From an uncultured Candidatus Saccharibacteria bacterium (GTDB lineage: Bacteria > Patescibacteriota > WWE3 > UBA101185 > UBA10185), in the NCBI GenBank assembly GCA_964480825.1, contig CAYZRJ010000003.1, positions 1-33,954 of the forward strand: a DNA stretch of 33,954 nt, read 5' to 3'. Under the pieces are notes generated by a model. That model was not told the DNA's origin, did not search any database, and saw only the letters and a list, made by a program, of their open reading frames with translations. The position numbers and the translations under genes are program-made. Of this stretch, positions 2-8,959 are shown one piece after another (the first letter of the stretch is position 1; each line of letters begins with the position of its first letter).

Positions 2-1477
2 GCCACAGACGTAAACGGTAGTCTGGATGTTATCAAAAAACAACAGAGTGATCAGACAAACCTGGATATAAAATTAAACTCTTTTACAATCGGGGAGGGA
101 CGGCAAAATAGTATAACAATACTTTATAAATCTAAATTTGTCGCAAATAAAACTGGCGAGATTTGGAATATTAATATTCCCCGTTCACAAATCGCAACGT
201 CAACGACAACGTATCATATAACCCTGGTGGTTCCAAAGACGTTTGGGCCAAAAATATTTGTGTCCCCTACCCCATCGATCGAAAAGTCAGACGACAATGT
301 AACCACATACTCGTTTGCAGCTGAAATAACAAATGGTCAAAATATCGCCGCATCGTTTGGTGAATATCAAGTTTTAAATTACAGAATCAGGTATCAAATA
401 ACAAATCCTAATTTTTTTACATCAAACTACGAAATAGCACTACCGCCAACGATAAACGAAACACAGGTTGTCGCGTATGAAAATCTTAACCCAAAACCGA
501 ATCGCACATATACAGACAGCGACGGAAATTATATGGCGGTATACAAAATAAGACCAAAACAAGCTTTGGAAGTTGAACTCAAAGGCAGTTCAAAATTAAC
601 AAGTAAACAGATAGACCCGCTACTGGGCGGTAAGTTTTCGGATTTACCAAAAAATTCGGTCAGAAAATACACTGAAAAAAAAGAATTTTGGGAAACAGAC
701 AATTTTCAAATAAAACAAATAGCCAAAGATCTGCGCAACCCCAATCTTACTGTGGCGGAAAACGCGAATAAAATTTATAACTATATTGTTGATAATTACT
801 CGTATGACTTTGGAATCGCTAAAAAAGATTTTGTTGACCGCAAGGGCGCTATTAAAGCCTTAAACGATAAAGCCGGGTGGGGCTGCATGGAATTCACTGA
901 TTCATTTATCGCTATTGCGCGTGCGATGGGAATTCCGACGCGCGAAATTAACGGTTATGCTATTACGACCACCGAATCTCAAAAACCAATTTCGGTAACC
1001 TTAAAAAACGGAGATTTATTACACGCATGGCCGGAGTTTTACGATCCAAAACTGGGGTGGATTCAAATCGATCCGACTTGGGGAGACACTTCGAATACTG
1101 ATTACTTTACCAAGCTGGACACCAACCACTTTGCATTTGTTATTAAAGGCGATAAGTCTGATTACCCGCTACCAGCTGGAACCTATCGAACGTCCAATTT
1201 AGAAAAATTAGTCGAGGTTGGTTTTTCTCAAGTAGATAAGACATCGCAGTTTAAAGGTAATTTTCAAACAAAAAAGCTTTTTACTTGGAATATTTTTGAA
1301 ATCATGGCAGGTAAACGAACATTTAAAATTACAAACACAGGAAAAGTCGCTCTATACTACGGCGTGGATAACGTGCTTATGCCCGAGAAAAGTGCAAACA
1401 TCTACGTTCCGAAAAATTCAAAAAGCTTGATGCTCAAAGACGCGTTTGGAGATGAGGTTACAAAACCGCTTCTTTAG
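2..1477 (+). CDS. transglutaminase-like domain protein (5' end lies outside the window)
   Basis: The frame of the listed ORF 227..1477 stays open back to nt 2 (ATDVNGSLDVIKKQQSDQTNLDIK...). The GTG at 227 is therefore internal and the gene is truncated by the window edge. Cys-His-Asp transglutaminase-like core: GWGCMEFTDSFIAIARAMGIPTR ... HAWPEFY ... IDPTWGD. Confidence 0.8.
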   Translation, partial: ATDVNGSLDVIKKQQSDQTNLDIKLNSFTIGEGRQNSITILYKSKFVANKTGEIWNINIPRSQIATSTTTYHITLVVPKTFGPKIFVSPTPSIEKSDDNVTTYSFAAEITNGQNIAASFGEYQVLNYRIRYQITNPNFFTSNYEIALPPTINETQVVAYENLNPKPNRTYTDSDGNYMAVYKIRPKQALEVELKGSSKLTSKQIDPLLGGKFSDLPKNSVRKYTEKKEFWETDNFQIKQIAKDLRNPNLTVAENANKIYNYIVDNYSYDFGIAKKDFVDRKGAIKALNDKAGWGCMEFTDSFIAIARAMGIPTREINGYAITTTESQKPISVTLKNGDLLHAWPEFYDPKLGWIQIDPTWGDTSNTDYFTKLDTNHFAFVIKGDKSDYPLPAGTYRTSNLEKLVEVGFSQVDKTSQFKGNFQTKKLFTWNIFEIMAGKRTFKITNTGKVALYYGVDNVLMPEKSANIYVPKNSKSLMLKDAFGDEVTKPLL

Positions 1478-4032
1478 TTCTCACTTAAACTTTTTAGGTG
1501 ATTTCTTAATGCTTCCGCGGTGTACGAAACCTTATTCCTTTTTAAATCCTCAATACTTCCGTTAAATAAAATTTCGCCGCCCTTATCACCACCATCTGGT
1601 CCAAGATCGATAACCCAGTCTGCATTGGCTATAACATCTAAGTTGTGCTCTATGACTAAAACAGTGTTTCCGCGAGCGGTAAAACGTTTAAGAATGGTGA
1701 TTAAATTTTCGAGGTCAGCAAAGTGCAAACCTGTTGTCGGCTCGTCTAAAATGTACAAACTGCTTCCCGTAGAACGTTTTGATAGCTCTAGTGCTAACTT
1801 AACTCTTTGCGCCTCACCGCCGGATAAAGTTGTAGCCGGTTGACCTAGTTTAATATAGCCCAAACCAACATCGTCCAGCGTCTGAATTTTTCTACTTATC
1901 TGCGGGATATGCTCAAAAAAAGTTAATGCCTCAGAAACATTCATGTCCAAAACATCGGCTATGTTTTTTCCTTTATACATTATTTCCAGCGCTTCACGGT
2001 TGTATCTTTTTCCGCCGCAGACCTCACATGTAACATACACATCCGGCATAAATTGCATTTCTATTTTTATCTGACCATCGCCTGAACACGCTTCGCAACG
2101 ACCGCCCTTTACATTAAAACTAAAACGTCCTGCAGCATAACCACGCACGCGGGATTCCTGAGTCATTGCAAATAACTCACGTATAAAATCAAAAACTTTG
2201 GTGTAAGTTGCCGGATTTGATTTTGGAGTTCTACCGATTGGAGTCTGCTCGATTGCAATTACGTTTGAAATATTCTCAAAACCTTCTATATCTTTAAAGT
2301 CTTCGGGCATTTCTTCGATTTTAAGACCAAATCTTTGGCGTAATGCTCTATACAAAGTATCCATAACTATAGTTGATTTACCCGAACCCGAAACTCCTGT
2401 GATACAGATAAATTTACCCAACGGTAAGTCAAGATTTACGTTCTTTAAATTTCTTCCCGAAGCACCTTTTAATATTAAATTTCTACCTTTGGTACTCTTT
2501 TTAGAAATATTTTGCTCCTCGTTATCCAAAAGTTGTTGCAAGTTTTCTTTTGCTTTTCCGCTATGTTTACCAACAACTAGTTTTCCTGATAAGTATTGAC
2601 CGGTTATAGAATTTTTATTTACCATGATTTCTTTTGGGGTTCCCTCCGCGATTATATTTCCACCGTGTTCACCGGCTCCCGGTCCAAAATCGAAAATATA
2701 ATCGGATTTGAGCATGGTTTCAGCGTCATGTTCAACCACCAAGACTGTATTGCCTAAATCGCGTAAGTGAAACAATGTATTTATCAAACGTGATTGGTCT
2801 TTTTGATGCAATCCGATAGATGGCTCGTCTAAAACATATAAAACTCCTGACAGTCCGGAACCAATTTGCGAGGCCAATCTTATTCTTTGGGCTTCCCCTC
2901 CCGACAATTGAGCCGAAGATCTTTCGATAGTTAAATAATCCAAACCGACGTCAACCAAAAATTTTAAGCGGTAAGTTATTTCTTTTAAGATGTTTTCACC
3001 GATCTTATTTTCCCTTTTGTTGAAAATATCGGGTAAATCGGCCACCCATTTGCGCGCATTTGTGATAGAGCCCCGACTAATTTCCCATATATTTTTACCG
3101 TCTATTGTAATGGATAAAGATTCTTTTTTAAGTCTCGATCCGTTGCAAACAGGACATATCTCCAAAACCATGAATTTTTCTATTTCGCTTCGAATAAAAT
3201 CTGATTCGGTTTCTTTGTGGCGTCTCTCTAAGTTTGGAATTACACCCTCGAAATTTGCGTCATAAGTATGCTCTCTGCCCTCTTTGGTTATGTACGTAAC
3301 TTTAAATCTTTTGCCCTCGACACCATATAAGATTATTTTTTGGTGTTCTCGCGACAATTTACCAAAAGGTATTTTTAAATTTATTCCGTACTCCTTAGAA
3401 ACTTCGTCTACTACCTTTTGGGTCCAGCTATAATGTTCAAACAGTCTAACCCACGGTAAAACTCCGCCTTCAGCAATCGAAAATGATTTATTTATTACTA
3501 AAGACTCATCAACGTGCAGTTGGGTTCCTAAGCCGTCGCATGCCGAACATGCTCCGTGAGGCGAGTTAAACGAAAATGTTCTCGGCTCGATGTCGGCTAG
3601 TGAAATATTGCACACAGGACACGCAAAATTTTCGCTAAACAAATAATCCTGTGTGTCTTTTGGGTTTTCAGGAAAATCCATAGATTTGTCTCTTACAAAA
3701 GTTATAACGGCACTTCCGTTTCCTAAATGCAACGCGGTTTCAATTGATTGAGTCATGGCTCTCGAAATGTCTTCGTTTTTAAAAGTTTTATGTGAAACAA
3801 CGTGGCGCGAAATCATTCCGTCAATTGAATGTTTGTTGGTTTTAATCAAATCAAAGTTGTCACTCAAGTCCCTTATAACACCGTCTATTCTTGCTCTAAT
3901 GATTCCTTGTTTTTTGAGATTTTCGAAAAGTGTAGAGTATTCGCCCTTTCGATCGCGAACGATAGGCGAAAAAACTATGAAGCGCGCGCCACGTTCCGAT
4001 TTAAAATACGCATCTTCCTGAAGTATATTCAT
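1474..4032 (-). CDS. uvrA: excinuclease ABC subunit UvrA, C-terminal ~88% (this frame stays open upstream to the frameshift at about 4114)
   Basis: Motifs: ABC signatures LSGGEAQRIRLA and LSGGEAQRVKLA; second Walker [10 protein letters not shown]; zinc modules CPVCNGSRL and CEACSGDG. Collinear with E. coli UvrA from the ...RARIDG region onward. The listed M at 4032 is internal: in the same frame upstream I read [33 protein letters not shown]. Confidence 0.93.
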   Translation of the reverse strand: MNILQEDAYFKSERGARFIVFSPIVRDRKGEYSTLFENLKKQGIIRARIDGVIRDLSDNFDLIKTNKHSIDGMISRHVVSHKTFKNEDISRAMTQSIETALHLGNGSAVITFVRDKSMDFPENPKDTQDYLFSENFACPVCNISLADIEPRTFSFNSPHGACSACDGLGTQLHVDESLVINKSFSIAEGGVLPWVRLFEHYSWTQKVVDEVSKEYGINLKIPFGKLSREHQKIILYGVEGKRFKVTYITKEGREHTYDANFEGVIPNLERRHKETESDFIRSEIEKFMVLEICPVCNGSRLKKESLSITIDGKNIWEISRGSITNARKWVADLPDIFNKRENKIGENILKEITYRLKFLVDVGLDYLTIERSSAQLSGGEAQRIRLASQIGSGLSGVLYVLDEPSIGLHQKDQSRLINTLFHLRDLGNTVLVVEHDAETMLKSDYIFDFGPGAGEHGGNIIAEGTPKEIMVNKNSITGQYLSGKLVVGKHSGKAKENLQQLLDNEEQNISKKSTKGRNLILKGASGRNLKNVNLDLPLGKFICITGVSGSGKSTIVMDTLYRALRQRFGLKIEEMPEDFKDIEGFENISNVIAIEQTPIGRTPKSNPATYTKVFDFIRELFAMTQESRVRGYAAGRFSFNVKGGRCEACSGDGQIKIEMQFMPDVYVTCEVCGGKRYNREALEIMYKGKNIADVLDMNVSEALTFFEHIPQISRKIQTLDDVGLGYIKLGQPATTLSGGEAQRVKLALELSKRSTGSSLYILDEPTTGLHFADLENLITILKRFTARGNTVLVIEHNLDVIANADWVIDLGPDGGDKGGEILFNGSIEDLKRNKVSYTAEALRNHLKSLSEN

Positions 4033-4052: not shown

Positions 4053-4457
4053 CTATGCTTTGACGTTGGATTTCACGACCACAATTCGGACAGTGAGGAT
4101 GACCGACTCGAGCAAAAGTCGCATATAGTCGTAAATTTCGGTAATTGTTCCAACTGTAGACCGCGGATTTCGAGAAGTTGTTTTTTGATCAATGGCAATT
4201 GCCGGCGATAACCCGTCAATTTTATCAACTTCGGGTTTATCCATTATGCCTAAAAACTGTCTTGCATAAGCAGACAGACTTTCGACATAGCGACGTTGAC
4301 CTTCGGCATAAATTGTATCCATCGCCAAAGAAGATTTACCCGAACCCGACACACCTGTAAAGATTACAAGTTTATTTTTTGGTATCTGAAGATCAATGTT
4401 TTTGAGGTTATGTTGGCGAGCGCCTGTAACAACAATGTGATTTAATGCATTTTTCAC
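4053..4457 (-). CDS. uvrA: UvrA N-terminal fragment, out of frame with the rest of the gene
   Basis: Reads (V/M)[69 protein letters not shown]...[12 protein letters not shown], the canonical UvrA N-terminus. After 4114-4117 it runs into 17 nonsense codons and a stop at 4053. The likely start is GTG at 4457 (in frame; it matches MDKIEVRGARTHNLKNI of E. coli). The listed ORF extension to 4622 lies in the upstream RNA unit. Confidence 0.85.
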
Positions 4458-4464
4458 AGAAAGT

Positions 4465-4493
4465 ATTCTACGGTATTTTTTCGGGTTTGTGAA
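4465..4493 (-). promoter_or_regulatory. uvrA promoter, leaderless type
   Basis: Minus strand: TTCACA (4493-4488), 17 nt, TAGAAT (4470-4465), 7 nt, GTG (4457). Confidence 0.55.
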
Positions 4494-4504
4494 GATGTAT
4501 TGCT

Positions 4505-4553
4505 GGCAGAAATGAAACGAGCCGACACCTTTAATTAAATAGGTTGTCGGCTC
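4505..4553 (-). terminator. intrinsic terminator of the RNA unit upstream of uvrA
   Basis: Minus-strand hairpin GAGCCGACAACCU / AGGUGUCGGCUC (4553-4541 / 4530-4519, one bulged A) with a 10-nt AU loop, followed by GUUUCAUUUCU. Confidence 0.6.
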
Positions 4554-4872
4554 TCGTAACAAGGGGTTTAGCCTTGGAATTTGCGAAACTAGTTGCGTGA
4601 TTGAAATGTACAAAACTCGCAACTAGCTCTTCTTAGCATTTGGCAATGCCTCTGTTTATTCTGATGGTTTTTACTGACCAAGGTCTGAAGCCTTGCGTTA
4701 AATCCATAGGCGCTGTTTGGCAACCTGGGTAGAGGCATTCCCTGGGATCGGTTGGGTCTAGGCTGGCACGTCTTAGTGTGTCTTTGCGACCCGTAGCTCT
4801 CGCTGGTTGGCGAGATTACTTTGGAGAGGTCAGGATAAATTGAGTCCATTTTTCCTCTTGGTTTGGGAATGT
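4508..4872 (-). ncRNA. unclassified structured RNA candidate of about 365 nt (class unknown)
   Basis: It is bounded by a perfect consensus promoter and the hairpin/U-tract terminator. The core is 52-58% GC (hand count of rows 4681-4800) in an AT-rich genome. Several helices can be drawn by hand, including a 9-bp long-range helix and a 12-bp helix whose G-U pairs work only on the minus strand. No Rfam-type signature motif is recognisable by eye. Confidence 0.55.
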
Positions 4873-4878
4873 AGAGAT

Positions 4879-4907
4879 ATTATAGGGTATATAGTCAAAA
4901 CTGTCAA
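4879..4907 (-). promoter_or_regulatory. perfect sigma70-consensus promoter
   Basis: Minus strand: TTGACA (4907-4902), exactly 17 nt, TATAAT (4884-4879). It starts 15 nt after the uvrB stop codon. Predicted TSS is about 4872-4870. Confidence 0.75.
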
Positions 4908-4922
4908 TAGTCTCGCATAGCA

Positions 4923-6908
4923 TTAAATGGTGCGCTTAATCTCCCGCACCTTATCCCTTAGCACCGCCGCTTTCTCAAAGTTAAGCATTTCAGCCTCATA
5001 AATCATCTCTTTTTGCAGGTCTTTTACAACTTTTTTGAGCTCTTGTGGAGGTAGTTGTTGGTAATCTACGTCCGTTAGACTCTTTTTGCCTTTACTGTCA
5101 ATGTCTTCTTCGATTTCTTCGTCAACTAGACGCTCTCTAAACGGTTTTGAAATATTTTCCGGTGTAATATCGTGAGCAATATTGTATTTTTCCTGAATCT
5201 TACGTCTGCGATCTACCTCGGCAACAGCTCGTTTCATACTGTCTGTGACACGATCAGCGTACATAACAACTTCACCTAAAATGTGTCTGGCGGCGCGTCC
5301 CATGGTTTGTATCAAAGAAGTATCCGAGCGCAAAAAACCCTCCTTGTCCGCGTCCAAAATAGCAACTAATGAAACTTCCGGCAAATCCAATCCCTCGCGC
5401 AATAAATTAATTCCGACTAAAACATCGTAGTTACCTCTACGCAAATCGTCTAAAATCTCGGTTCGCTCTAAAGTATCAACATCTGAATGCAAATATGTAA
5501 CTTTAATATTTTGCTCCAACAAATAGTTAGACAGCTCTTCGGCCATTCTTTTTGTTAATGTTGTTACCAATACTCTTTCGTGGCGAGCAACTCTTTCTTG
5601 AATTCGGACCAATAAATCTTTAACCTGATCTTTGATAGGCAAAATAGTAACTTTTGGATCCAAAATTCCTGTTGGTCTGACTAACAACTCTGTAACTTTA
5701 CCTTTTGATCGTTCAATTTCCCACTCGTTTGGTGTTGCGCTTACATAAATTGTTTGATCGACTTTACCCAAAAACTCATCAAAGTTTAATGGACGATTAT
5801 CTAAGGCTGATGGAAGTCTAAACCCATATTCGATTAAAGTTTTTTTGCGGGCCTGATCACCGTTATACATACCTCGAACCTGCGGAATAGTGATGTGCGA
5901 CTCGTCTATAACCAACAAGTAATCTTTTGGAAAGAAATCCATCAATGTGTAAGGAGTAGACCCCGGATCTCGGTCGTCGAAATAACGTGAATAATTTTCG
6001 ATACCTTTGCAGTAGCCAATCTCTTGCATCATCTCTAAATCGTAGTTGGTTCGCTGCTCAAGACGGTAAGCTTCCAGATTTTTTCCCTGCGATTTAAATT
6101 CCTTTAGTCTTAGTGCTAAATCGGTTTTTATTTGTTCACGCACCCCCTGAACGCGGTCTGCCGGCGTAACGTAGTGCTTAGCAGGAAATATATCTACACT
6201 CTGAATTCTATCTTCAATGCTTGAAGCAGTTATCGGATCAAACGAGGATACACGTACAATCCTGTTATCTAAAAATTCTACTCTAATCGCGTAATCTAAA
6301 TAAGCTAAAAATACGTCAACTACATCGCCCATGACACGATAAGTTCCACGTTTAAAATCTATATCCGAACGCTCGTAGTTTATTTGGGTCAAACGCGTAA
6401 TAAAATCCAGCGCTCTTATTTTCATACCCGCCCGCAATTCTATCGCCATTTTTGAATAGGTTTCAGGCGAACCTAAGTTATAAATACACGAAACAGATGA
6501 AATAACAATCACGTCTTTTCTGGTCATCAAAGCTGTAGTTGCCGCTAAACGTAGTTTCTCTATTTTTTCGTTTATTGCCGAGTCTTTTTCTATATAAGTA
6601 TCAGTTGAAGGCAGGTAACTTTCGGGTTGGAAGTAATCGTAATAACTAACAAAGTATTCAACTGCGTTTTTTGGGAAAAAATTGCGAAACTCTTGAAATA
6701 ATTGTGCCGCTAAAGTCTTGTTGTGCGAAATTATTAAGGTCGGACGTTGAACTTTCTGAATAATTTCTGAGATTACAAATGTTTTTCCGGAACCTGTAAC
6801 TCCCAACAAAACCTGATTTTTGTCACCTTTAATTAAACCTTTTGAAAGTTTTTCTATTCCTTCGGGTTGATCGCCTGCGGGTTTGTAAGATGAAATTAGC
6901 TCAAACAC
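4923..6908 (-). CDS. uvrB: excinuclease ABC subunit UvrB
   Basis: Motifs: SSYKPAGDQPEGI N-terminus, Walker A GVTGSGKTF, DESH box (VIDESHITIPQ), C-terminal UVR domain (EMLNFEKAAVLRDKVREIK). The start is set at GTG 6908 (MFELISSYKPAGDQP, compare B. subtilis ..FELVSKYQPQGDQP) because TATACT sits 6 nt upstream. The maximal ORF starts at ATG 6929, which would lie upstream of that -10. Confidence 0.93.
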   Translation of the reverse strand: MFELISSYKPAGDQPEGIEKLSKGLIKGDKNQVLLGVTGSGKTFVISEIIQKVQRPTLIISHNKTLAAQLFQEFRNFFPKNAVEYFVSYYDYFQPESYLPSTDTYIEKDSAINEKIEKLRLAATTALMTRKDVIVISSVSCIYNLGSPETYSKMAIELRAGMKIRALDFITRLTQINYERSDIDFKRGTYRVMGDVVDVFLAYLDYAIRVEFLDNRIVRVSSFDPITASSIEDRIQSVDIFPAKHYVTPADRVQGVREQIKTDLALRLKEFKSQGKNLEAYRLEQRTNYDLEMMQEIGYCKGIENYSRYFDDRDPGSTPYTLMDFFPKDYLLVIDESHITIPQVRGMYNGDQARKKTLIEYGFRLPSALDNRPLNFDEFLGKVDQTIYVSATPNEWEIERSKGKVTELLVRPTGILDPKVTILPIKDQVKDLLVRIQERVARHERVLVTTLTKRMAEELSNYLLEQNIKVTYLHSDVDTLERTEILDDLRRGNYDVLVGINLLREGLDLPEVSLVAILDADKEGFLRSDTSLIQTMGRAARHILGEVVMYADRVTDSMKRAVAEVDRRRKIQEKYNIAHDITPENISKPFRERLVDEEIEEDIDSKGKKSLTDVDYQQLPPQELKKVVKDLQKEMIYEAEMLNFEKAAVLRDKVREIKRTI

Positions 6909-6923
6909 AAAAATAGTATAGCA

Positions 6924-6937
6924 TCGCAATATTGCGA
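6924..6937. promoter_or_regulatory. perfect 14-bp palindrome TCGCAATATTGCGA, candidate operator in the divergent uvrB / orf196 promoter region
   Basis: TCGCAAT | ATTGCGA is an exact inverted repeat. It lies in the spacer next to the uvrB -10 (TATACT, 6920-6915). Its right half is the -35 (TTGCGA, 6932-6937) of a plus-strand promoter TTGCGA-N17-TGcTATAAG (6952-6960). Confidence 0.5.
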
Positions 6938-6987
6938 GTATTAAGTATCTGTGCTATAAGGTATATACAAAAAGTAAAGGAGAAAAT

Positions 6988-7578
6988 ATGTCAGAATACA
7001 ACTGGAAGCCTGTTCTTCTGCATACTGCAGAGCTGGAATGCACTATAACTTTTGAAGGGCTCGCAAAATATCAGGAGCAAGGAGCGACACTCACTTTTCA
7101 TGTACTACCTAATTTAGGCTTTGCGGCTCCCAAAACTGACGTCAGCGAAAAAGCGTGGGAACGAGAGGTTGTAAGATTCGTTAAGGAAAAGGCCGCTGAG
7201 CTTACTGGGCTTGAACCAAGTGACTTCATGCTGAACGGATGGTGGGGAGTCGGACCAAGCTTAACGGTTGCAACATTGAAAAAACCCCTAAAACTTACCG
7301 AAGATCTGATTGTTCGCATGAGTGTGGACGGCACCGAAATAGCGGAATCACTTCGCGAAGCTCGAAAAGGTTGCGTTCACATCAAAGGAACTCTCGTCTC
7401 AGGGCATCGCGCAGTCGGAGAAGACGTTGAATTCTGGCTACCGTTTGATGTCCACGAAGTCCGTCTATCTTTTGTAGCTCCTCACGGTTACGTACTGCGC
7501 GAGGAGAAAAATGGACAACTTGGAGTTCGCGCGTGGCTTGAAGGAGTTGAACCGCCAAAAAATATGGTGAGTTTCTAA
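6988..7578 (+). CDS. hypothetical protein, 196 aa, compositionally atypical
   Basis: Strong Shine-Dalgarno AAGGAG (6977-6982) 5 nt before the ATG, and its own terminator downstream. About 47-52% GC in sampled rows, against 28-37% in uvrB and lexA rows. No family motif that I recognise. Confidence 0.7.
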   Translation: MSEYNWKPVLLHTAELECTITFEGLAKYQEQGATLTFHVLPNLGFAAPKTDVSEKAWEREVVRFVKEKAAELTGLEPSDFMLNGWWGVGPSLTVATLKKPLKLTEDLIVRMSVDGTEIAESLREARKGCVHIKGTLVSGHRAVGEDVEFWLPFDVHEVRLSFVAPHGYVLREEKNGQLGVRAWLEGVEPPKNMVSF

Positions 7579-7627: not shown

Positions 7628-7657
7628 TTGACATGTTCGGGTTTGTTTTGGTAATAT
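7628..7657 (+). promoter_or_regulatory. lexA promoter
   Basis: TTGACA (7628-7633), 18 nt, TAATAT (7652-7657). This gives a leader of about 50 nt before ATG 7714. Confidence 0.55.
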
Positions 7658-7713: not shown

Positions 7714-8343
7714 ATGAGTCCCATAACCTTATATAGAAAACAAAGACAAATTTTAGATTTTATTTCGCAGTATATTCAAAAGAATAATTACTCCCCCACA
7801 CTACAAGAGATAGCTGCCGCTATGAATTTATCTTCACTTGCCACTGTTTTCGAGCATCTGCAAGCTTTAGAAAAAAAAGGTGTAATTAGACGCTTCGAAG
7901 GTACCGTCAGAGGCATTGAAGTTGTTGATCAAGGTTTCAACTCCTCTCTATCCGGAATAGAATTACCGATCATCGGATTTATTGCGGCCGGTGAACCAAT
8001 CGACGCGATTGAAAATCCTATTGACACCGTTATGGTTGCCCCGGACATGGTTTCAAAGTCTAAACGATGCTATGTATTGCAGGTTCGCGGTGACTCGATG
8101 ATCCAAGAAGGAATTTTCGACGGAGATTATGTTGTTTTACAAAGCCAAGAGGTAGCAAACGACGGCGAGATTATTGTTGCTTTGATAGATGATATGTTTG
8201 CAACCTTAAAAAAGTATTATCACGAAAAAGATGGCCGAATTAGACTACAACCTGCAAATGACAAAATGGATCCTATTTATGTAAACGCAAGTCAATTAAA
8301 GATTCAGGGTAAAGTGACGGGTGTAATTAGAAGATTTAATTAA
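7714..8343 (+). CDS. lexA: LexA repressor (S24 self-cleaving peptidase)
   Basis: N-terminal winged HTH (YSPTLQEIAAAMNLSSLATVFEHLQALEKKGVIRR). Ala-Gly cleavage site in IAAGEP. Catalytic Ser in RGDSM and Lys in ATLKKY. Confidence 0.95.
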   Translation: MSPITLYRKQRQILDFISQYIQKNNYSPTLQEIAAAMNLSSLATVFEHLQALEKKGVIRRFEGTVRGIEVVDQGFNSSLSGIELPIIGFIAAGEPIDAIENPIDTVMVAPDMVSKSKRCYVLQVRGDSMIQEGIFDGDYVVLQSQEVANDGEIIVALIDDMFATLKKYYHEKDGRIRLQPANDKMDPIYVNASQLKIQGKVTGVIRRFN

Positions 8344-8959
8344 GCTTTTTCTCTTTGTATAAATGTAATAAAGGTGGCAAAACGGAAGCTACGATGATTA
8401 TTAAAACAATAGGTAAAATATATTTATCAACATCCGGGATAATCGAGCCTAAAAAATAACCCAAAAACGCCATTCCCCAAACCCAAAGGGTTCCGCCCAT
8501 AATGTTAAAAAATAAAAATCTTCCGTAGTGCATGGTTCCGATTCCGGCGACTATTGGCGCGAATGTTCTAATCACGGGCATAAAACGAGCTAAAACAATC
8601 GCCTTCCCACCATGCTTTTCATAAAAGTTTTGCGCCTTTATTAAGTTTTCAGGATGAAATAAGAGAGAATTTTCGCGTTTGAATAAAGCCTTTCCTGCTT
8701 TTTTGCCAAACATATAACCAACAGAATCTCCAAATATAGCGGCAAACCAGCAACCAAGAACTAATGCCCAAATATTAAAGAATTCAAAAGCCGGAGAAGC
8801 TAGCAAACCGGCAGTAAATAGCAGACTATCGCCGGGCAAAAAAAATCCGACAAGCAAGCCTGATTCTGCAAAAACTACTAAATAAACTCCGAATAGCCCG
8901 ATACTCTCTATAAAAGCTCTTAGATCATGGTTTAAAAATGATGAAATTATCTCCTGCAC
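8336..8959 (-). CDS. DedA/VTT-family membrane protein
   Basis: DedA signature FAESGLLVGFFLPGDSLLFTAG, multi-pass membrane protein. The start is set at in-frame GTG 8959 (208 aa, typical length; TATCAT sits 6 nt upstream). The listed extension to 9103 would overlap the divergent gene by 118 nt. Confidence 0.85.
   Translation of the reverse strand: MQEIISSFLNHDLRAFIESIGLFGVYLVVFAESGLLVGFFLPGDSLLFTAGLLASPAFEFFNIWALVLGCWFAAIFGDSVGYMFGKKAGKALFKRENSLLFHPENLIKAQNFYEKHGGKAIVLARFMPVIRTFAPIVAGIGTMHYGRFLFFNIMGGTLWVWGMAFLGYFLGSIIPDVDKYILPIVLIIIVASVLPPLLHLYKEKKLN

Follow-up and report, generated by a model that had tools for sequence, protein, structure and literature searches.

The window analysed here is a stretch of 33,954 bp on contig CAYZRJ010000003.1, and all coordinates are given in its numbering. 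Its genes are tightly packed, and its sole noncoding gap of more than about 150 nt lies between uvrB and uvrA, where a unit on the minus strand was found which, judging from its sequence, most likely yields a stable, multi-domain structured RNA. The uvrB gene ends at 4923 (minus strand), directly before the unit, and uvrA begins beyond it with the start codon GTG at 4457-4455 on the same strand.

The unit opens with a sigma-70 consensus promoter (Table 1), which is the single perfect TTGACA-N16-18-TATAAT in the 33,954 bp, against 0.06 expected; transcription probably starts near A4872. The distance from this promoter to the intrinsic terminator is ~365 nt. The terminator stem is lengthened by a CCU/AGG pairing, and the hairpin is directly followed by the U-rich tail GUUUCAUUUCU at 4518-4508; the terminator scan was limited to loops of 8 nt, so this hairpin escaped it. 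At the sequence level, the -35 and -10 elements, their 17-nt spacing, the hairpin and the U-tract of a sigma-70 unit with intrinsic terminator are all present. The promoter of uvrA, which lies past the terminator, was kept in every related locus, including those free of the element.

The G + C content by 100-nt windows was 0.56 at 4700-4799 and 0.52 at 4750-4849, and that of the flanking coding windows was mostly ~0.30-0.45, with some at 0.50-0.52. The enrichment of the unit is genuine, but modest. A preliminary description of this DNA, made from its letters alone, had proposed an independent minus-strand unit with the only perfect promoter of the window, a hairpin terminator, a GC-rich core and a separate promoter for uvrA. 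Its own promoter and terminator support the independence of the unit, and the other features were also recovered, though some flanking windows come close to the G + C content of the core.

Table 1. Features of the unit between uvrB and uvrA, in the order of transcription
Feature	Position	Strand	Remark
Sigma-70 consensus promoter TTGACA-17-TATAAT	4907-4879	-	Score 12/12
P0, 5′ strand CAUUCCC	4871-4865	-	Extreme 5′ end, inside island ACAUUCCCAAACC
Shine-Dalgarno (SD)-like AGAGGA and ATG	4858-4853 and 4849-4847	-	
86-aa open reading frame (ORF)	4849-4589	-	Present, AGAGGA upstream
Local 5′-domain hairpin UCUCGC/GCGAGA	4815-4810/4803-4798	-	Window-specific, no L081 counterpart
Local 5′-domain hairpin GGGUC/GACCC	4792-4788/4758-4754	-	Window-specific, no L081 counterpart
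P0, 3′ strand GGGAAUG	4742-4736	-	Inside island CAGGGAAUG
P1, 9-bp helix AAUGCCUCU (4739-4731)/AGAGGCAUU (4653-4645)	4739-4645	-	Closes central domain around H1
H1 island UAACGCAAGG-CUUCAGA-CCUUGGU	4700-4677	-	Stem 4695-4691/4683-4679
12-bp hairpin with two G-U pairs	4629-4586	-	Window-specific
H2 hairpin AUUC-CAAGG(4576-4572)-CUAAACC-CCUUG(4564-4560)	4580-4560	-	
Linker ACGA, terminator hairpin and U-rich tail	4557-4508	-	
Intrinsic terminator hairpin GAGCCGACA (4553-4545)/UGUCGGCUC (4527-4519)	4553-4519	-	Read from sequence
uvrA promoter TTCACA-17-TAGAAT	4493-4465	-	Outside the RNA, marks downstream boundary of the unit

Relatives of the unit and its pattern of conservation

The UvrB protein of the window is 65-70% identical to those of candidate division WWE3 metagenome-assembled genomes, which places the window in a bacterium of this group, within the candidate phyla radiation (Patescibacteria); closer UvrB relatives were then compared. 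A homologous unit was present in locus L081 (UvrB 95%) together with ten near-identical groundwater contigs (L089, L100-L108), and in L082 (UvrB 83%); in L084 (UvrB 76%) a unit built in the same way precedes two small, unrelated ORFs. Among the relatives with a readable spacer, three distinct ones (the L081 type, L082 and L084) have a homologous unit. The 12/12 promoter recurs in L081 and L082, where promoter and terminator are both kept and frame units of about 520-530 nt; the version in L084 is TTGAAA-17-TAATAT. The spacer of L083 (UvrB 77%) holds an unrelated 105-aa ORF, and that of the P0004 contig (UvrB 77%), which was left out of the DNA comparison, a 114-aa ORF. In L085/L088 (UvrB 72% for L085) the spacer is empty, with the uvrB stop leading directly to the uvrA promoter, and the more distant L001-L003 and L090-L092 have no uvrA at the locus. 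On this comparison only a narrow clade has the unit, and the spot in which it is inserted is variable, from which it follows that it would not be a housekeeping RNA.

The small ORFs in the uvrB-uvrA spacers of the relatives measure 102-114 aa (L083:7115-7432; L084:7613-7921 and 8017-8361; P0004 contig). The three readable ones, in L083 and L084, are mutually unrelated; each has a consensus promoter, SD sequence and terminator, and they gave no Pfam or PHROG match. For the P0004 spacer ORF there is no Pfam match on record. The uvrB-uvrA spacer is a hot spot for small accessory genes. As the perfect or near-perfect promoters of L084 also drive ordinary small ORFs at this spot, promoter strength alone is no mark of an RNA gene.

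At fourfold-degenerate sites the uvrB genes of the window and L081 differ by 0.249 (24.9%), and neutral DNA is therefore expected to align at ~75% identity. The interior of the unit aligned between these two loci no better than shuffled sequence (z = 0.5, 5′ half). L081 and L082, with a larger fourfold difference of 0.60, can nevertheless be aligned in their 5′ halves (z = 3.8). Amid the unalignable sequence stand colinear shared islands. The 5′ island ACAUUCCCAAACC has a 13-nt block common to the window and L081 and an 8-nt block common to the window and L082; it is followed by CAGGGAAUG, which contains the 3′ strand of the pairing P0 described below. The H1 island, UAACGCAAGG-N7-CCUUGGUCAGU, has exact blocks of 16 and 10 nt common to the window and L082, and is less well matched in L081 (ACGCAAGG plus GACCUUG). 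At the 3′ end, AAUUCCAAGG...CCCCUUGUUACGAGAGCCGAC and the terminator are shared. As read from these alignments, the pattern is a mosaic of conserved islands in exchanged sequence and not gradual drift, and we infer recombination among diverged alleles of one family. The resemblance to housekeeping RNAs drawn in the preliminary description did not hold, given the narrow clade, the absence from the spot in relatives and an interior that is unalignable at 25% fourfold difference.

Within the L081 population, 11 contigs had no variable site in 496 nt of promoter and RNA body, a figure subject to ascertainment bias since nine of them were retrieved via the exact 65-aa ORF. There were 5 variable sites in the 72 nt of H2 and terminator, and about 9 single nucleotide polymorphisms in 1145 nt of uvrB (26 positions were flagged, of which 17 form one contiguous block). 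Variation in the L081-type contigs is concentrated at the 3′ boundary of the unit, the RNA body being invariant. At L081:3054-3065 they fall into two haplotypes, which differ in the loop of H2 (U/C) and in its closing pair, where G restores CAAGG/CCUUG as in the window and A gives a C.A mismatch.

Predicted secondary structure

Folding of the sense strand of the window unit gave z = -3.57 against dinucleotide shuffles, none of 100 shuffles being as good, and the antisense strand gave z = -2.16. The corresponding sense/antisense values for the two other long versions (L081 and L082) were -4.21/-2.76 and -5.59/-3.01, the sense strand thus being favoured in all three. A folding energy below that of shuffles and a strand asymmetry, as looked for in structured noncoding RNAs in general, were both found, and the predicted fold is multi-branched in the versions of 365-530 nt. 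The structure had been called more than random in the preliminary description, which the z value and the shuffles bear out. All five helices drawn there lie where they had been placed, and four of them are in the minimum free energy (MFE) fold; the exception is the 9-bp helix, here P1, which is absent from the MFE fold, and of which the centroid of the same prediction holds 8 of 9 pairs. Two features had been overlooked: CCAAGG at 4577-4572, one of the CCAAG-like segments for which a common CCUUGGU partner had been proposed, has a partner of its own, CCUUG at 4564-4560, in hairpin H2, and CAUUCCC at the 5′ end is complementary to GGGAAUG (P0).

P0 is represented by ACAUUCCC/GGGAAUGU in L081, by UUCCC/GGGAA in L082 and by CAUUCUCU/AGAGAAUG in L084, where both strands are altered together, including a compensatory change from C-G to U-A. 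The MFE folds of the window and L084 include it, with pair probabilities of 0.31 and about 0.7, and the penalty for forcing it was 5.0 kcal/mol for L081 and 2.7 kcal/mol for L082. Where P0 forms, the 5′ domain is predicted to fold as a closed junction from which roughly three hairpins emerge (by eye, three or four in L084), and in each version this P0-closed domain holds the SD sequence and the start codon.

To compare P1 with shuffles, we took the 13 nt that begin with the AA of CAGGGAA and looked for their best perfect complement; for the window, an equal or better match occurred in 0.13% of shuffles (P = 0.0013). At the same position in L081 and L082, right after GGGAA and enclosing H1, the single-sequence MFE folds show a helix that is imperfect and differs in sequence. 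P0, with its 3′ strand, and P1, with its 5′ strand, have 4 nt in common, so that the full P1 is at least in part an alternative to P0.

The stem of H1 is kept in the window, L081 and L082, and L084 has at this position AACGCAA and then a different hairpin. Two of the five pairs of H2 show compensatory changes across L082 and L084. In the terminator segment 97.7% of cells are paired, with one compensatory change from G-C to A-U in L084. For H2 and terminator together, 94% of cells are paired with three compensated pairs (two in H2, one in the terminator), which was matched by 4 of 500 shuffles; slid controls gave 35-47% paired. The elements kept among the versions are P0, joining the 5′ end to a complement about 115-160 nt downstream, the AACGCAAGG hairpin H1 (AACGCAAGG-N7-CCUUG), and H2 with the terminator.

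Coding potential, database searches and neighbouring genes

The 86-aa ORF, which the preliminary description had offered as an alternative, exists with its AGAGGA, the AGAGG of which pairs with CCUCU at 4825-4821 in the MFE fold. GAGG with ATG or GTG 5-7 nt downstream is present in all four versions, and the frame from that start runs for 86 codons in the window, 65-67 in L081 and 70 in L082, being the longest on the strand in each; in L084 it has only 18 codons. A ribosome binding site, a start and an open frame of 65-86 codons are accordingly found in three of the four versions. What the ORF lacks is the behaviour of a conserved protein, as seen from its codon score and want of homologs. The codon scores were -0.08 (window), 0.01 (L081) and -0.05 (L082), versus 0.244 ± 0.057 for the genes of the window, and the G + C content at third codon positions (GC3) was 0.47-0.54 (window 0.54) versus 0.345 for genes. 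The genuine small ORFs of L083 and L084 have codon scores of 0.05-0.18 and GC3 of 0.22-0.27.

The peptides of L081 and L082 had no significant similarity (BLASTP E = 0.79), although their DNA aligns with z = 3.8, and the window ORF had no similarity to either. Apart from the nucleotide islands, six-frame tblastn detected no homology at the protein level, whether the four versions were compared with each other or with the neighbouring small ORFs. These islands are read in different frames: CAGGGAA as CAG GGA A in the window and L081 and as GCA GGG AAG in L082, and ACGCAAGG as ACG CAA GG in L081 and L082 and as AAC GCA AGG in the window. When 5.8 billion proteins were searched with a profile, the exact L081 ORF alone was returned, and phmmer with the 86-aa ORF against 1.84 billion representatives gave two matches, both to repeat-derived spurious ORFs. 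None of the candidate ORFs had a Pfam or PHROGs match above curated thresholds. The AlphaFold (AF2) model of the 86-aa ORF had a low-confidence predicted local distance difference test (pLDDT) score of 48.7. With neither a conserved peptide nor host-like codon usage found, the 86-aa ORF is, on this sequence evidence, probably not a conserved protein; some peptide or leader may be translated from the unit.

Searches with Rfam 15 (cmscan) gave no match at gathering thresholds in the whole window, nor, with permissive filters, in 601 nt (4400-5000) at E ≤ 10, in agreement with the earlier opinion that no known class fits. The homologous loci L081-L084 gave only chance sub-threshold matches, to sn1502 (E = 0.94) and to a clustered regularly interspaced short palindromic repeat (E = 4.9). 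ARAGORN found no tRNA or transfer-messenger RNA (tmRNA) gene in the window. RNase P RNA (RF00010/RF00011) was rejected, having no covariance-model match in the window or homologous loci; in addition, the interior is unalignable with L081 and the element is missing between uvrB and uvrA in L085/L088 and L083. Rejection of tmRNA rests on the empty ARAGORN result and the lack of an Rfam tmRNA match. The signal recognition particle (SRP) RNA and 6S RNA likewise had no Rfam match, and the predicted fold is multi-branched at 365-530 nt; 6S RNA is a rod of about 180 nt with a central bubble.

Several other candidates were dismissed. The likeness by eye of CAGGGAA...ACGCAAGG to the c-di-GMP-I riboswitch had no cmscan match, the anticodon-loop-like appearance of H1 is at odds with the loop of L081 and with the empty ARAGORN result, and a 16S fragment was not supported by any small subunit rRNA match. 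For integron attC sites or IS200-type ends the core sites misfit, with no search aimed at integrase or transposase genes.

No second copy was detected by blastn and nhmmer against 80 GTDB uvrB loci and the window itself, and a composite-signature regular expression run over 1.19 Mb of comparison loci returned the known copies only. A metagenome scan with a 20-mer of the uvrA promoter yielded one relevant locus, which is element-free, and one chance match. The matches from two pattern scans of viral contigs all lay within phage coding sequence and were due to chance, plasmids and phages showed no similarity to the unit by blastn, and a literature search found nothing specific to it.

Among the neighbouring genes, uvrA falls into two frames (ORFs 4053-4622 and 1474-4032, minus strand). 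Compared with the L081 gene, which is intact and codes for 995 aa, it has lost four nucleotides of a TTTGTTTG repeat at ~4112, owing either to slippage, which would make it a pseudogene, or to an error of assembly. At L085:3738-6753, uvrA is also called as two genes (592 aa and 419 aa), so that more than one lineage of the clade may have a broken uvrA or a faulty assembly of it. The uvrA promoter of every locus has the 9-mer AAACCCGAA between its -35 and -10 elements (window 4480-4488, minus strand); the 9-mer was also found in opposite orientation in the lexA promoter of the window (7636-7644), and upstream of uvrB in L083 (4970) and L084 (4971). It differs from the classical boxes and is a candidate SOS/LexA operator of this WWE3 clade. 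The region of divergent promoters that separates uvrB from the 196-aa ORF preceding lexA contains, at ~6925-6938, a perfect 14-bp palindrome, TCGCAATATTGCGA, which may be a second operator. This 196-aa ORF (6988-7578, plus strand), just upstream of lexA and divergent from uvrB, had no Pfam or PHROG match, and at its position several relatives have ORFs of 101-139 aa with no Pfam match on record.

Interpretation and alternative explanations

Taken together, the unit looks like a member of a new RNA family, absent from Rfam, of narrow lineage and mosaic evolution, which is neither a housekeeping RNA nor a conserved small protein gene. The explanation we favour, and to which we would give an even chance, is a structured RNA gene of this new family that produces a trans-acting regulatory or protein-binding RNA, perhaps also translated. 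P0 and the terminator would cap both ends of the transcript, giving an abundant, stable RNA, and P0 would close a 5′ domain of about three hairpins in which the SD sequence and start codon are held. Through the nucleotides shared by P0 and P1, the RNA may switch between two conformers. It would most likely act in trans via the conserved islands, on a protein or on another RNA; low-level translation could make it a dual-function RNA, and it would be accessory, not essential.

A number of observations weigh against this explanation. The covariation statistics are weak, there being only four distinct versions: the two compensated pairs of P0 were equalled in 34 of 500 shuffles (4-5 distinct sequences), and P0 in L082 has only 5 bp. 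P1 in L081 and L082 rests on single-sequence MFE folds, and only H1, not P1, emerged when the central domain was aligned with MAFFT and run through RNAalifold; given the unreliable alignment, this result was set aside as evidence on P1. One H2 haplotype of the L081 population has a broken base pair. An SD sequence, a start and an ORF of 65-86 codons, occurring in three of the four versions, have a chance of ~1-4% each, as estimated from base composition, which speaks for translation. Finally, when the rest of the window was searched for complements of the conserved islands, which could be trans targets, no more matches were found than expected by chance.

The reading frame bears most directly on the alternative that the unit is an mRNA which encodes a small basic protein of about 65-86 aa that evolves very fast, and whose long 3′ untranslated region is structured, the islands being secondary and serving stability or termination. 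We see a modest chance of this. It would account for the GAGG and start codon 5-7 nt on in all four versions and for a frame that is the longest on its strand in the window, L081 and L082; some gene callers annotate the 65-aa ORF on 9 contigs, the peptides of L081 and L082 have PNLIA in common with third-position differences, and the cassettes of L083 and L084 at the spot, which are small protein genes, likewise have promoter, SD sequence and terminator arranged in this way. However, codon scores lie outside the range of real genes and GC3 is above theirs, the peptides of the window, L081 and L082 are dissimilar and the L084 ORF stops at 18 codons, and the conserved islands fall in different frames. 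The absence of Pfam and PHROG matches, the purely spurious repeat-derived ORFs found among 1.84 billion representatives, the pLDDT of 48.7 and the high degree of structure in the ORF region itself point the same way. The unit might instead be a decaying or selfish insert without cellular function, the remnant of a hot-spot cassette kept as terminator for uvrB and insulator for uvrA. This we regard as unlikely, since island conservation is far above the neutral expectation, the folding z-scores are strongly negative in three versions, the perfect consensus promoter is kept in three lineages and 496 nt are free of polymorphism across 11 contigs; moreover, genomes of candidate phyla radiation (CPR) bacteria are compact, with little room for non-functional DNA, and the unit is the only large gap in 34 kb. 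On its side are the varying content of the spot among relatives, the window version being 150 nt shorter than that of L081, the 4-nt frameshifting deletion in the adjoining uvrA of the window, and the lower G + C content (0.38) and broken ORF of the L084 copy. About as doubtful, or slightly more so, is the idea that the unit is one allele of a recombining, cassette-like ornate RNA family with a fixed scaffold and swapped hairpin modules, acting in conflict or partner recognition. Promoter, clamp of the 5′ end with GGGAAUG, AACGCAAGG hairpin, H2 and terminator would form the scaffold, and the hairpin modules between these parts would have been swapped far faster than neutral drift allows, which would fit an RNA of immunity or addiction, or one serving the relationship of episymbiont and host, rather than ordinary gene regulation.

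The position of the unit, on the same strand and immediately upstream of uvrA, could suggest a cis-acting leader or attenuator, in which uvrA is driven by conditional read-through of the terminator and the RNA or a leader ORF senses a signal. Terminator and H2 are indeed the best-conserved part, and the nucleotides shared by P0 and P1 permit a switch, but uvrA has its own conserved promoter and putative operator past the terminator in every locus, element-free ones included, two other genes lie between unit and uvrA in L084, no anti-terminator pairing with the terminator stem appears in the predicted folds, and Rfam gave no riboswitch or T-box match; we consider such a leader improbable. Still less probable is a module resembling type I toxin-antitoxin systems, with a structured toxin mRNA whose SD sequence is sequestered. 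The structured initiation region, the 5′ end paired into the RNA body, the fast evolution, the patchy distribution and the neighbourhood of SOS genes (lexA, 7714-8343) would suit it; the peptides, however, are basic or polar with no hydrophobic stretch of transmembrane length, no conserved antisense or divergent promoter was found in the window, L081, L082 or L084, and the putative SOS motif AAACCCGAA is absent from the promoter of the unit. That the unit is a divergent housekeeping RNA (RNase P RNA, tmRNA, SRP RNA or 6S RNA) is barely credible: size, strong promoter and raised G + C content speak for it, but the 601 nt had no Rfam match at E ≤ 10 and the relatives had none above chance, ARAGORN was empty, close relatives lack the unit at this locus, and the interior is not conserved at a fourfold difference of 0.25.

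The trans-acting RNA favoured above has its nearest likeness in dual-function multi-hairpin regulatory RNAs, such as RNAIII of Staphylococcus. Both are RNAs of several hundred nt with a strong promoter and terminator of their own, many hairpins and a small ORF embedded in the structure, long-range pairing of the 5′ end, and ends that are conserved while the middle diverges between relatives. Unlike RNAIII, to which it has no sequence or Rfam relationship, the unit has an ORF that is much longer than hld and not conserved, and it belongs to a CPR host, with no quorum-sensing context visible in the examined part of the window. The large or ornate bacterial RNAs OLE, GOLLD, ROOL and raiA, which are Rfam families, resemble it as long, GC-enriched, highly structured intergenic transcripts (predicted here) of a compact AT-rich genome; the unit differs from them in having no Rfam model match, in its smaller size and narrow clade, and in an interior that turns over instead of being conserved. 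Type I toxin mRNAs (hok, tisB, dinQ, aapA1) share with it the mRNA-like structured RNA, the SD sequence in a helix, the 5′-end pairing, the patchy distribution and the SOS-gene neighbourhood, whereas a hydrophobic peptide, an antitoxin promoter and an SOS operator in the promoter are lacking in the unit. Protein-sequestering decoy RNAs (CsrB/RsmZ, CrcZ, 6S) are likewise modular and, as the unit would seem to be, abundant, with hairpin number varying between relatives (365 versus about 520 nt for the unit), and the two similar CAAGG-N7-CCUUG hairpins H1 and H2 recall them; however, these are the only two similar hairpins, no repeated loop motif (GGA, A-rich boxes) was found and there is no Rfam match.

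To our knowledge, very few non-coding RNAs have been described for CPR bacteria. Should the unit prove to be a fast-evolving small-protein gene or a decaying insert, its interest would be local only. If, on the other hand, it is a strongly promoted, stable RNA of several domains, retained at a DNA-repair locus even though it is replaced from one near relative to the next, it would constitute a new accessory RNA family, and would offer a handle on the exchange of small genes in these bacteria.

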